DNA of 15,847 nt from an uncultured Myxococcales bacterium (GTDB lineage Bacteria > Myxococcota > UBA4151): NCBI GenBank assembly GCA_964013405.1, contig CAXGWI010000082.1, forward strand, positions 1 through 15,847. Reading direction: 5' to 3'. Under the pieces are notes generated by a model. It saw only the letters and a list, made by a program, of their open reading frames with translations, was not told where the DNA came from and did not search any database. The number at the start of each line of letters is the position of its first letter. The stretch's first letter is position 1. The translations under genes and the position numbers were made by a program. Shown in pieces: positions 4,864 to 15,847 of the stretch.

Positions 4864-5949
4864 TCAGGGGTCGACGAAGTAGCCATCCCATTGGCAGATA
4901 CAGCCGGCGGGTCGATCACAGCGAGCGTCTCGTAGACCGGACTCGCCGGGGCGGATCCAGCCACAGGTCTGACCATCCTCATCGGCATCCTCAAAATTCG
5001 GATGCCCGGGAAGCCAGGGGTCATAGTCTTCGGTTGTCATGCCTGTAGACCATTGCCATTCACCATCTTCATCACCTGAATTCCAGGCGAACATTCCCGT
5101 CCAATAGGCCGCTTCGGCTGGATCGAGCGCTTGGCTGATCGCTTCTATCTTGGCTTGGGAATCAAGGGCTGCAGACCAAGATTCTCGATCCATGCAGAAG
5201 GATTCGCAGGCGAGCCAACCAGCGCTCAAGTCCGGGTTCGGACGCACTGCATCTTCCGGGCAAATCCAAAATACGCTGAGGCCATCTGGGCTTGGGGTCG
5301 CCTCACAGCCGGCCGGGGGTTCGGGGAAAGGCAGTTTGCAATCGTTACTACAATCGTCGTCATCGATGTCGTTGCCATCGTCACACTGTTCGACGGATGG
5401 TTCGGTGTCGGTTCGATGAATGCCGTCGCCACAGCGGGCCCGCTGGCAAGCATTGGTGCAGCCATCCTGATCCCAATCATTGTTGTCGTCGCAGGCCTCA
5501 TAACCTTCGTCGCCCTCACGCAGGTCCTGCCGGACAATTCCATCACCGCATTCGGCGGCGACGCAGCCTTCCTTGCAGCCGTCGGTGTCCAAATCGTTGG
5601 CATCGTCACAGGCTTCCACACCGTCGTGGACATAGCCATCACCACATTCTGCTGTCCGGCAATCATCGATGCAGTCGTCATTGTTGTTGGTGTTGGCATC
5701 GTCACAGCTCTCGTAGCCCCGCTCGCCTTCCGGGATGTCTTTGCGCACCGCACCATCGCCACAGCGAGCGGCTTGGCACAGGGTGGTACAGTCGTCCTCG
5801 TTGTTGAGATTACCGTCATCGCAGCCTTCGCCGCTTTCGACGATGCTATTGCCACATTGGCTCGGAGGCTCTGGGGGAGGGACTTCGGTGGGGGCAGGAC
5901 AGGCCAGCCAAAGCGGCAGGAGAAGAGCGATGTAAACGGGACGGTTCAT
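4864..5949 (-). CDS. Lipoprotein with 5 Myxococcus-type Cys-rich repeats (DUF4215-like) and a C-terminal C-type lectin-like domain
   Basis: Lipobox WLAC and a Pro-rich linker, then 5 CGxx...CDDxN...C...C units. The head shows W..CESFC, YWTG, WQWSTG, PWLPGHPN, C, LRDARC and CICQ, the C-type lectin pattern. Confidence 0.88.
   Translation of the reverse strand: MNRPVYIALLLPLWLACPAPTEVPPPEPPSQCGNSIVESGEGCDDGNLNNEDDCTTLCQAARCGDGAVRKDIPEGERGYESCDDANTNNNDDCIDDCRTAECGDGYVHDGVEACDDANDLDTDGCKEGCVAAECGDGIVRQDLREGDEGYEACDDNNDWDQDGCTNACQRARCGDGIHRTDTEPSVEQCDDGNDIDDDDCSNDCKLPFPEPPAGCEATPSPDGLSVFWICPEDAVRPNPDLSAGWLACESFCMDRESWSAALDSQAKIEAISQALDPAEAAYWTGMFAWNSGDEDGEWQWSTGMTTEDYDPWLPGHPNFEDADEDGQTCGWIRPGESGLRDARCDRPAGCICQWDGYFVDP
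5338..5856 (-). repeat. 5 intragenic Cys/Asp-rich repeats (4 Cys each)
   Basis: Counted in the translation, from CGNSIVESGEGCDDGN to CSNDC. Confidence 0.9.
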
Positions 5950-5976
5950 TGGGAACCCTTTTTTGAAGGTCTGAAG

Positions 5977-6888
5977 CTATCGCACATAGACATGAATGCA
6001 GCCGCTCGCAGATTGCGGGTCATGGGTCCAACTGTTGCCGGCACCCCGGTGGCTCACCCCATTGTAGCGACCGATCTCATCGATCTGACCCCATTTCATG
6101 CCGTCCTGCTACCACACATGGCAACTGCAGCCAAAGGTCGGGATGTCATAGACCTCACCCCCACCGTTGTTATGCTCCCAAATCATGGAGCAGTTCGGGC
6201 CACTGGAGCCGTTGAGGGGGGTGCCAATTTGGTAACAGCGGTTGGCCGTTCCATCCCGCTGGGTGCCATCGAGCAACAGCTGCACATGGTTGACATCAGC
6301 GATCGCGGCTTCCCAGCTAAAGAGATAGCCTGGTCGCTCCCCGAAATCGCTGGCGAAGCGGACCCGCTGGGGCTCCATGGCTGCCACCGTATCGTAGGGG
6401 AGGCTGGTGACCGGTTGGTTTGAGACCGGTCTGATTGGCGTGTCATGGGAGAGACCGTCGGCTCGTGCATCGCCACCGCCGTCCTGGCACATGATGTAGA
6501 CGAGCCCCCAACCGCCCTCCGCATCATCCATATCGCAGTGGATCTCGAAGGCATCATCTCCGTTGCCGCCGTTGGGATCCACCCAATAGAGACCGGATTC
6601 GGTCTGCGGCCGTTCGGCCAAAATAGAGCGGCAATTTTGGGCCGGTCGGGCCGCTGAGCCCAGCTCGTTGGCCACGCACGCATTCGTGCAAGCATCATTG
6701 TCTTCACCATTGCCATCATCACAGGCTTCGACGCCCTCATGGACGACGCCATCACCGCAGCCGGCATCGTCGCAGTCGTTCAAACAGGCGTCGGTGTTGA
6801 CCTCATTGCCATCGTCGCAGTCTTCCACACCGAGATAGACGATGCCGTCGCCGCAACGGGCCGGCCTGCAGGTGTCGAACGGTGCGAT
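5977..6888 (-). pseudogene. 5'-truncated Cys-rich-repeat plus fibrinogen-like (YCDxxxxGGGW-type) gene with an internal TAG
   Basis: Manual translation: the frame is bounded by TGA at 6889-6891 and repeat sequence starts mid-unit ([24 protein letters not shown]) with no signal peptide. The GTG at 6828 lies inside a repeat. The head has [24 protein letters not shown]. After TAG 6109-6111 the frame continues for 43 codons to ...GCIHVYVR-TAG (5977-5979), a natural domain end. Confidence 0.8.
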
Positions 6889-6969
6889 TCAGCCAAGCTC
6901 CCTGTCAAGTTGGCGGGAAACTTTCCGCGGCGAGTTGCTGCCGTTACAAAGAGCCTATATGGGGGACAG

Positions 6970-14179: not shown

Positions 14180-14187
14180 GGCCCATC

Positions 14188-14231
14188 GAGGGCAGCCAAG
14201 GCTGCTTTCGCCGTCTTCCAGTGCTGCCCTC
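14188..14231. terminator. Inverted repeat between convergent genes, possible terminator
   Basis: GAGGGCAGC (14188-14196) and GCTGCCCTC (14223-14231) form a perfect 9-bp pair. An alternative short stem is GCAGC-CAAG-GCTGC followed by TTT. There is no strong U tract. Confidence 0.35.
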
Positions 14232-14249
14232 TGGTCGCCAAGTCAGTCC

Positions 14250-15847
14250 TTAGGGCCGATTGTCCTCATCCCGAACCAGCTCGGCTTCGTCCACCTCTCG
14301 GTAGAAGATCTCCACGGCACCGGTGGGTAGCCATTCGGTGGCGAGCGTATCCCCTCGGCGAACGGTTCGTGAGAGGAACATGCCATCGGCTGTATAGCGG
14401 CTGGAGGAGAGACAGAGCCCGGCGAGCGGGCCCTTCCAGAGCAACTGGCGTTCCGGATCGACCGGCTGATCTTGGCACGTGGGGCTTTGCCCGGCCGCAG
14501 CGAAGCAGCCCAGGCAGAGTTCAGCGTCGGCCATCTGCTCCATAAGGATGTTTTGGCAGCGTCCTTCGACACAGGTCTCAGCGGCGACGGGACAATGGAC
14601 TCCGCCGGCCGGGGCACAGGCATCGCCGGAGCCCGAGTCCAGTTGCAGTCGGGGGCGGCGGGCGATCATGACCGTCTGTTCTTTGCTCACATCACCCAGT
14701 CCGGCGAGATAGTCCCCTTCGACTTCCTCGAGGACCACGCCGTCGTGCCGCTGGATATGCCAGCGCCGGGGGCCATCGTAATGGTAGGGCCCCTCGGGAA
14801 TGACCCATTGGGGATCATCGGGAAGCCAGCGCTCCACGTCGAGCGGCGGCCCTTGAAAGATCTCGAGGAACTCGCTTTCCACGGGCTCTTGGGCGATGGC
14901 TCCGGGCACGGGCCTGTCATTGGGCAACTGACCTTGAGCTAGGCTCATCCCATTGAGGAGATAGCTCTGGTCCGGCGGCAGGCCTGAGGCCGAACCAAGG
15001 GTGTCATGCCAGACTTTGATCAGGGCTTGGTGGGGGCGGCGGCCCAGGGGGCGCAAGCCGGCGCATTGGCTAAAGAAGTGGCGTGGGACGCCGGTTTCTG
15101 CGCTGAGGCGAACGCACTGGGTCCAGCCGCCTTCAAGACGATCGAAGTCGCACCAGACCTCCTGGCGAACGAGTCTGGTGGCCTCGAGCCCCGGTGCGAC
15201 GAGCTTGGGGGTTTCGATCCAGTAGTTGCCGCTTTCGAGGTCGGGCCCCAGGGTCCGTTGTAGGCTGGCGCAGCTGGGCGCGGCCTGTTGGGCGCTCATG
15301 CCGTTGGGGTAGGGGCGGCAGTCTTCGCCACAGGGCGCCAGCGCCCGTTGATTGACGGGTAAAGGGTTGCCTTCATCGTCGAGGGCCAGGCCATTGGCTT
15401 CACCGTCGTCACAGGCCTCAAAGCCTTCGGCCCCTTCCCCCCGGTCGGTTCGGCGGACACCGTCGCCACAGCGGGCCCTTCGGCAATCGTTGCGACAGGC
15501 ATCGTGATCGTCCAGGTTCCCATCGTCACATTCTTCGTATCCTGGCTCCCCTTCGCTCAAGTCGTCCCTGAGGATGCCATCGCCACAGCGCGCTTGGCGA
15601 CAGAGCCGGTTGCAGCCGTCGCTGTCATCGAGGTTCCCATCATCGCATTCCTCGTAGCCTTCTGGGAATTGGTCCGAGGGCCAATAGAAGTGCACAGCGT
15701 AAGCACCAATGCCACTGTAGGCTCGGACGGCGAGGGAGAATTGAGCCCCCTCCTCGAAGCCTGCTGGGCCGCTGCGGAGTTCGATGTAGCAGTTGCCACC
15801 TTCGTTGCGCTGATGGTCATCATCGTTTTCGGCGATGGGCCTTCCTT
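14250..15847 (-). CDS. 5'-partial Cys-rich-repeat protein with a PPC-like module and a C-terminal divergent fibrinogen-like domain
   Basis: The frame stays open from 15695 to the window edge (GRPIAENDDDHQRNEGGNCYIELRSGPAGFEEGAQFSLAVRAYSGIGAYAVHFYW), so the true start is outside the window. About 2.5 repeats are followed by AAPSCASL..SGNYWI..VWCDFDRLEGGWT (15123-15155) and a terminal strand VEIFYR. Confidence 0.85.
   Translation of the reverse strand, partial: GRPIAENDDDHQRNEGGNCYIELRSGPAGFEEGAQFSLAVRAYSGIGAYAVHFYWPSDQFPEGYEECDDGNLDDSDGCNRLCRQARCGDGILRDDLSEGEPGYEECDDGNLDDHDACRNDCRRARCGDGVRRTDRGEGAEGFEACDDGEANGLALDDEGNPLPVNQRALAPCGEDCRPYPNGMSAQQAAPSCASLQRTLGPDLESGNYWIETPKLVAPGLEATRLVRQEVWCDFDRLEGGWTQCVRLSAETGVPRHFFSQCAGLRPLGRRPHQALIKVWHDTLGSASGLPPDQSYLLNGMSLAQGQLPNDRPVPGAIAQEPVESEFLEIFQGPPLDVERWLPDDPQWVIPEGPYHYDGPRRWHIQRHDGVVLEEVEGDYLAGLGDVSKEQTVMIARRPRLQLDSGSGDACAPAGGVHCPVAAETCVEGRCQNILMEQMADAELCLGCFAAAGQSPTCQDQPVDPERQLLWKGPLAGLCLSSSRYTADGMFLSRTVRRGDTLATEWLPTGAVEIFYREVDEAELVRDEDNRP
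15318..15662 (-). repeat. About 2.5 intragenic Cys/Asp-rich repeats
   Basis: EGYEECDDGNLDD..., CGDGILRDDLSEGEPGYEECDDGNLDD... and CGDGVRRTDRGEGAEGFEACDDGE... Confidence 0.85.

Follow-up and report, generated by a model that had tools for sequence, protein, structure and literature searches.

Predicted surface lipoproteins with a shared cysteine-repeat stalk form a class-wide repertoire that is slowly reshuffled in uncultured Myxococcota

The window analysed here is a 15,847-nt stretch of DNA that makes up the entire contig C82 in the assembly (G000; 3.90 Mb, 244 contigs, 94% complete) of an uncultured Myxococcales bacterium. It carries four genes, A to D, whose products share a stalk of four-cysteine TIGR02232/DUF4215 units (PF13948, IPR011936) and end in a C-terminal domain, hereafter the head. 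Our data indicate that these genes belong to a repertoire found throughout the class, in which predicted surface lipoproteins are built from catalogued but unstudied parts and are reshuffled slowly. In this repertoire the repeat is expanded, one layout carries diverse heads, stalk–head pairs are mostly inherited vertically, whole genes are gained and lost, and heads are occasionally exchanged in the middle of a repeat unit.

The initial annotation of the window, made from the sequence alone, had described four genes with a common four-cysteine stalk, and this description holds. The TIGR02232 scores of A, B, C and D are 84.9, 26.7, 247.8 and 38 bits, all above the curated cut-off of 20.8, and a profile of our own counts 5, 2, 17 and 3 units, respectively, the last unit of D being partial. 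Specifically, gene A (4864..5949, minus strand) encodes a complete predicted lipoprotein with a lipobox, five units (5326..5856) and a C-type lectin head (4864..5325), which matches Lectin_C at 38.4 bits (cut-off 22.6, E 2e-9) and also gives langerin and selectin matches. Gene C (10454..13150, plus strand), likewise complete and a predicted lipoprotein, has its lipid cysteine at 10511, directly before the family motif EQVVVRETEAS; a stalk of 17 units (10553..12277) and an ALK/LTK-like glycine-rich head (12278..13150) with relatives in another genus come next. Alone, this head scores 18.1 bits against Pfam ALK_LTK_GRD, under the cut-off of 24.5; a profile of nine related heads aligns with human ALK/LTK over positions 3-285 (E 2e-32, a score that glycine bias may inflate), and a paralogue of the head reaches 97.5 bits against the same cut-off. 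As had been proposed, both complete genes thus carry a lipobox in their sequence, the surface-anchoring criterion used for fibrillar adhesin-like proteins, the lipidation itself being predicted.

Gene B (6109..6888, minus strand) is a 5'-truncated relic consisting of its last two units and a fibrinogen-like head, with neither start codon nor signal peptide in frame. The head scores 53.1 bits against NF040941 (cut-off 30), which describes an N-terminal YCDxxxxGGGW module, and its fibrinogen/COLFI similarity is limited to about the first 50 residues (profile positions 4-52 of 221). Run X2, possibly the source sample, contains a 196-bp contig that crosses the 5' junction of B with zero differences. 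Gene D (14250..15845, minus strand) is cut at its 5' side by the contig end and encodes about 2.5 units and a divergent fibrinogen-like head, which reaches 23.4 bits against NF040941, under the cut-off of 30, and for which the Fibrinogen_C cluster matches, below 0.9, are a lead only; a PPC-domain end of D is likely. Therefore, of the four head assignments made originally, the lectin of A and, by way of the nine-head profile, the ALK/LTK-like domain of C stand, that of B applies to its first 50 residues or so, and that of D is weak.

The genome-wide catalogue of the repeat was obtained by running the profile, built from G000's own units, against 34,109 stop-to-stop frames. Repeats were found in 155 of these frames, with 1,381 TIGR02232/DUF4215 units; as 45 of the 155 run off contig ends, the true gene number is about 130-150. 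The repeat frames make up 8.4% of the assembly, an upper bound, and the units alone 3.6%. Among the 140 repeat frames having an N-terminus, 131 show a loose lipobox pattern and 27 an EQVVVR motif behind the lipid cysteine. This motif, in the forms EQVVVRETEAS or EQVVVRDxPxE (window positions 10511-10550 and 26 other G000 genes), is nearly invariant in the two genera compared and is a candidate sorting or pairing signal.

Comparisons were made with G001, of the same genus as G000, and with G002, G003 and G005, of another genus, all genomes used being fragmented metagenome-assembled genomes (MAGs). The class is represented by six genomes in the dataset searched. The class-wide count used a fixed DNA pattern of the unit core, which is present in all six, at 562-1,151 copies per genome or 219-314 per Mb. 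Elsewhere in the phylum, over 256 genomes, the density peaks at 46 per Mb, followed by 35 per Mb, and genomes of 9-13 Mb typically have 20-50 copies in total. This contrast is conservative, because in other genomes the pattern also catches a different cysteine repeat. The TIGR02232/DUF4215 repeat as such was found in 208 of the 261 phylum genomes searched; the density in the class is at least five-fold that of every other genome searched, and about 100-fold that of the 9-13 Mb genomes. Compared with other TIGR02232/DUF4215 proteins, those described here are distinguished by a long-loop variant of the unit and by EQVVVR behind the lipid cysteine. Some G000 members with 9-27 units end at their last unit (C35:13556, C48:8006, C65:13736, C69:11921), and three of these are headless in G001 too.

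Against this background, the window is not a special locus and represents the upper tail of the genome-wide density of repeat genes. The long-loop variant, annotated in three of the four genes, is indeed present in A, C and D, yet also in 98 of the 155 repeat frames of G000. The junction CTNxCxAN, reported in two stalks, is confined to B and C among the 155 frames, but by DNA the last two units of B and C rank 23rd and 4th of 132 with respect to each other and are not nearest relatives. For the four window stalk ends taken together the mutual DNA ranks run from 4 to 132 of 132, and no identical 40-base stretch is found among the four stalks. At uniform density, 0.63 repeat genes are expected per 15.8 kb, and the probability of four or more is 0.004 for one window; genome-wide, seven contigs hold at least four repeat genes, compared to 5.65 expected. 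Tandem arrays do exist, since 14 of the 56 neighbouring repeat-gene pairs are less than 300 bp apart. The claim of a local repertoire is therefore not supported: clustering no greater than the genome-wide density, which the annotation itself had named as a refutation, is largely what we found, and the window was rejected as a local exchange unit. As a separate observation, the 56 kb of G001:C33:5649-61823 contain no fewer than 13 repeat genes arranged head to tail in runs, most with fibrinogen-like heads and several without G000 counterpart.

The inheritance of stalks and heads was followed between G000 and G001, the latter sampled around 150 listed of 1,126 candidate matches; this partial sample gave 84 repeat frames, and concordance was judged by best-hit tests and not by comparing stalk and head trees. 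A G000 stalk at 72% identity or more was found for 45 G001 frames, and the heads agree in 29 of the 29 cases, all with long stalks, in which both are assembled. The number of units is equal in 21 of 26 complete orthologue pairs. Fixed stalk–head pairs, the other outcome named in advance as a refutation, are thus the rule, with the three exceptions described below. Of the 74 G001 heads sampled, 49 have a close counterpart in G000, 4 have one at 40-60% and 21, mostly fibrinogen-like and RCC1-like, have none, G000 being incomplete. When the 5' and 3' flanks of the 84 frames were compared under strict thresholds, 16 were concordant, 3 appeared split or swapped, 28 gave one end only, 17 had no orthologue and 20 were incomplete; two of the three split-or-swap cases are best explained as genes split across contigs.

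Two general processes were considered and rejected. Diversifying selection acting on heads in general is not supported by the identity of orthologous heads (median 82-83%, compared to 80% for 192 other frames), and ongoing homogenisation of stalks is not supported by the identity of paralogous stalks (median 49% in amino acids over 5,553 pairs), among which near-identical tracts are few. In addition, four syntenic G001 genes (C37:788, C30:6620, C96:3515 and C64:34209, facing G000 C123, C27, C135 and C29) have heads only 32-47% identical with flanking DNA at 66-79%, possibly as a result of replacement by distant alleles.

In three G000/G001 orthologues the head switches inside a repeat unit. 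G000:C161 and G001:C101 are 71% identical over about 670 amino acids (77% in DNA) up to the middle of a unit; past this breakpoint, C161 continues with two long-loop units and a fibrinogen-like head, and C101 ends in a C-type lectin. The DNA downstream of the two heads differs as well, and the C161 head and its downstream genes were not found in G001-G005, so that the site looks like a variable island bordered inside the repeat. Around the C161 breakpoint, examined on the G000 side, there is no exact 24-base repeat. In the second case, G001:C33:59985 combines the upstream DNA and 5' part of G000 C112:7869 with the head of the next gene, C72:15516, the linkage of contigs C112 and C72 in G000 being deduced from G001; a tract common to the two G000 neighbours is 90-98% identical, and the displaced C112:7869 head was not found in G001. 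In the third case, G001:C88 and G000:C142 part ways after the first unit. Likewise, the neighbouring genes on C54 have 150 bases about 98% alike beneath unrelated heads. The proposal of modular heads shuffled by recombination in the repeats therefore stands at the scale of the genome and between species, supported by these tracts and by one head, that of gene C, which rides on 17, 20, 21 and 28 units across genera, but it does not apply within this locus. In conclusion, head shuffling exists and is slow, acting over species-level time; apart from one diversity-generating retroelement on a different contig, a programmed switch was not found.

Regarding the enzymes involved, there is no site-specific recombinase in the window and no dedicated recombinase near the repeat genes. 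Genome-wide, two tyrosine recombinases were found, on C175 and C58, contigs without repeat genes; serine recombinases were not searched genome-wide. A diversity-generating retroelement is located at G000:C5:3-2730. It comprises a reverse transcriptase gene (1046-2134, minus strand) adjacent to the target gene, a template (2614-2699, minus strand) and a variable repeat (910-995) at the 3' end of the target gene C5:3-998, and all nine mismatches in the 86 bases fall at template adenines. The target encodes one degenerate repeat unit and an FGE-like head, 27.9% identical to a C173 member. Genome-wide, the template matches only C5:910-995, and the window genes are not targets. A similar reverse transcriptase gene is present at G002:C129:462-1523, with no template/variable pair in 8 kb around, and a second one of G000 at C131:4562-5884, with no such repeat pair nearby.

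Whole-gene gain and loss is evident at the site of the window in related genomes. At the syntenic site, G001 carries a 19-unit lipoprotein orthologue of B and a 17-unit C, without gene A and without both genes between B and C. Since this orthologue is a full 19-unit lipoprotein, B in G000 is regarded as a relic; the spot of its 5' part is occupied by a gene for a predicted outer-membrane protein weakly resembling FadL/PorV (6970..8403, plus strand; matches below cut-off). The second intervening gene (8467..10389, plus strand) encodes an accessory adenylate/guanylate cyclase with a phosphonate-binding domain. A contig of run X4 joins window positions 8407 and 10457, and this gene is thus missing from a related strain. 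Sequence related to the window is present in marine metagenomes, whose read contigs are shallow; their joints inside repeats were disregarded.

Gene A was not found in G001-G005, and it recurs intact in a JGI record (361 amino acids, 97% identical, both domains). It is positioned behind an operon (window 198-4844) for an imelysin, an HTTM/VKGC-like protein and a TonB-dependent receptor, which probably serves metal uptake and is also present in G001, with a second lipoprotein gene upstream. The head of gene C is 71-72% identical in G002, G003 and G005 and 84% over the assembled part in G001, and its stalk is no closer across genera than paralogous stalks are. Gene D replaces G001's neighbours downstream of a membrane-protein gene (13352..14179, plus strand). 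The latter is shortened relative to its G001 orthologue (more than 560 amino acids), which extends through a proline-rich linker to a TPR-like end and lies beside an AgmX-like gene, these names being given by eye. For the head of D there is no close match in G001-G005; the best G001 head, 46% identical over part of its length, is that of a paralogue.

The heads of G000 were classified with our own profiles on the 135 tails of at least 60 amino acids, with Pfam spot checks on 52 of them. We counted 39 RCC1-like, 21 fibrinogen-like, 14 PPC, 5 C-type lectin, 4 FGE-like, 4 ALK-GRD-like, 3 LamG and 2 DUF1554 heads, with 6 counted in two classes and 49 unclassified. Pfam agrees wherever matches occur and adds one matrixin and one AhpC-like head; among the Pfam matches of the window proteins and of the 52 heads there is no phage-fibre or S74 family. 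In G001, one of 12 scanned heads covers most of the fibrinogen domain (positions 4-183), and 10 of 12 scanned heads of the array type have little in common beyond a module of about 55 amino acids. The glycine-rich head was found at 25 loci in other bacteria and archaea, three of them with stalk units; therefore, describing these heads as eukaryote-like does not mean that they were recently acquired from animals.

As for the stalk, the units contain 27% Asp+Glu and 12% Cys, and the roughly 1,400 of them are 65-75% alike as DNA. A model of the first 235 amino acids of gene C, from 48 collinear stalks, reached a predicted local distance difference test (pLDDT) score of 89.5 and a predicted template modelling (pTM) score of 0.64, and shows a chain of beads with almost no helix or sheet. 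All 26 Foldseek matches listed for this model are PAPP-A or ADAM/disintegrin modules, with non-significant E values above 0.8, and the best VIA match has Z 3.1, a root-mean-square deviation of 4.9 and 49 aligned residues; at the sequence level, the stalk gave no meaningful match in the PDB. Single stalk units superpose on PAPP-A/ADAM modules at 1.0-1.3 Å over 33-34 residues, with 39-41% identity. Assuming mature numbering, the matches would map to PAPP-A M3/M4, modules that bind calcium (PMC9579167). The invariant residues of the unit (CGD, E-C-DD-N and D-C) appear to fit disulfides and a calcium site.

Proteins resembling CsgG/LpoB/TolB-N, with a signal peptide and a hydrophobic hairpin at the C-terminus, form a family in which nine of the 15 strongest members are encoded immediately next to a repeat gene and on its strand, eight of them upstream (G000 C91:8034, C57:6840, C22:28863, C70:7257, C29:24321, C189:1006, C155:1480, C112:1516 and C171:3179). 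This family is a possible export or anchoring partner.

Taken together, these data lead us to favour, with moderate confidence, the reading that the 130-150 or so genes per genome constitute a standing repertoire of lipid-anchored adhesins for prey cells and particles. A predicted N-terminal lipid would anchor a chain of disulfide-locked, likely calcium-binding beads at the cell surface, the chain would place a variable end domain at a distance from the cell, and the end domains would bind prey cells or particles. Ordinary homologous recombination and tandem duplication, anchored in the roughly 1,400 units, probably drive the change over species-level time, and one family-like gene is additionally a target of the diversity-generating retroelement. 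Prey or particle capture appears the likeliest role because a Kil-like Tad cluster and Glt-type barrels are present. Specifically, an A24 peptidase, a secretin, an FHA-fused ATPase and an FHA(-TPR) protein are encoded in a row at G000:C51 8945-14967, a gene order such as that given for Kil cluster 1 in PMC8460266. The secretin domain was found in four of five genomes searched, and G000 has three Glt-type barrels; these barrels and the Kil-like cluster also point to Myxococcota as the phylum. The next gene after the Kil-like cluster on C51 encodes an OmpA/TSP3 beta-barrel reminiscent of TraB. More speculatively, and only as a tentative extension, these would be small-genome marine predators resembling myxobacteria, with up to 8% of their DNA given over to an innate-immune-like recognition library: about 150 surface lipoproteins on one calcium-bead stalk, with lectin-, fibrinogen-, ALK- and RCC1-like tips, renewed by repeat-anchored recombination and, for at least one member, by retroelement hypermutation, and feeding prey contact to a Kil-type machine.

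Several observations weigh against the adhesin reading. Sugar-binding C-type lectins have EPN or QPD plus WND as calcium-site motifs; in the lectin of gene A, the canonical calcium/sugar-site motifs EPN and WND of the langerin alignment are replaced by HPN and LRD. In most fibrinogen-like heads, the similarity ends after the N-terminal 50-60 amino acids and the rest is divergent. Some heads (matrixin, AhpC-like) look enzymatic, six G000 genes are headless, and, the CsgG-like family excepted, no recurring exporter gene was found among 215 neighbours of repeat genes. Orthologous heads are no more diverged than other genes, and there is accordingly no general sign of an arms race. In addition, given the 90-98% shared tract, the G001:C33:59985 junction could be a deletion or an assembly collapse.

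Four other explanations were weighed. The proteins could make up a coat that protects the cell or marks its identity, in which an acidic layer rich in disulfides would bear variable tips that act against grazers or phages, or in kin recognition, and not in prey capture. The acidic and cysteine-rich composition of the units, the headless genes and the 21 of 74 sampled G001 heads without G000 counterpart, as expected for variable surface islands, are in line with this; about two thirds of the heads, however, are kept between species at the identity of housekeeping genes, and some across genera, unlike decoys or strain tags, and we consider such a coat unlikely. The stalk could also be a general spacer, periplasmic or at the surface, for modules that capture nutrients or act as enzymes (polymer binding, proteolysis, redox), without any particular function in adhesion. 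The matrixin, AhpC-like, PPC and FGE-like heads, and the position of gene A behind the imelysin/TonB-receptor operon, would suit such a spacer, but recognisable enzymes are a small minority of the 135 heads, gene A is missing from that operon's site in G001, and the periplasm seems a narrow space for stalks of 17-35 units. This makes a general spacer rather improbable in our judgement.

The remaining two explanations concern the origin of the heads. That the apparent exchanges are chimeric assemblies across repeats, the family evolving by duplication, loss and divergence alone, is suggested by the fragmented MAGs, by the frames running off contig ends, by the near-identical C112 tract and by exchanged junctions that were read from assembled contigs. 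It is nonetheless improbable: the C161 breakpoint lacks an exact 24-base repeat in G000, the partner genome did not yield the displaced heads at any other place, and past exchange is needed anyway to explain collinear paralogous stalks with unrelated heads. A local cassette with rapid programmed head switching, of the shufflon or silent-cassette type, is largely refuted and very improbable. Gene B, a headed stub without a start, could have been its silent donor, CTNxCxAN is shared by B and C alone, and the locus differs from G001 in several genes. On the other side stand the scattered ranks of the stalk ends and their lack of a common 40-base stretch, the persistence of C with 17 units and its head in G001, the intact recurrence of A at 97% identity, the location of both tyrosine recombinases away from repeat contigs and a retroelement template that fits its own target only.

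Going by titles and abstracts, with poor coverage of subscription journals, the literature gives no function for TIGR02232/DUF4215 in bacteria and no such expansion. A diatom adhesive-trail protein has twelve such units (bioRxiv 10.1101/2023.03.06.531300). By analogy, the nearest functional counterpart of the adhesin repertoire is that of the mosaic adhesive trimer (MAT) fibres of Bdellovibrio bacteriovorus, with 21 trimeric, phage-fibre-like members (PMC10769870). According to that paper, this predator-associated set likewise combines a conserved base with C-terminal tips of many kinds, among them a C-type lectin fold minus the calcium motif; here, in contrast, about 150 predicted lipoproteins carry disulfide beads and no fibre/S74 Pfam match, which points to analogy and not homology. 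Fibrillar adhesin-like proteins (PMC8286594; PMC10952558), which are extracellular and have a stalk forming a rigid rod, share an anchor, a tandem stalk, a terminal candidate ligand-binding domain and domain shuffling, and differ from the present family, in which the predicted lipid anchor is N-terminal and the head C-terminal. The main text of PMC8286594 does not contain DUF4215, lipoprotein or Myxococc- as terms, and its supplements may list stalk families. PAPP-A M3/M4 and ADAM disintegrin modules occur singly or in pairs inside proteases, whereas up to 35 units stand in tandem here. TraA, a single-copy myxobacterial surface protein, has cysteine-rich repeats, an N-terminal variable recognition domain, a C-terminal MYXO-CTERM anchor and a partner, TraB; the present family differs in its N-terminal lipid anchor and its many genes. 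The TraA receptor of Myxococcus is named in relation to kin recognition in PMC10433427.

In conclusion, a repeat used about 1,400 times per genome offers a test set for the role of TIGR02232/DUF4215, possibly that of a calcium-stiffened spacer and recombination anchor. Many relatives of the ALK glycine-rich, fibrinogen-like and C-type lectin domains are now available from bacteria through this family, and new binding modules may be sought among the 49 of 135 small heads that are unclassified. Natural pairs differing in nothing but the head may help to understand how predatory or particle-colonising bacteria recognise a wide range of targets.

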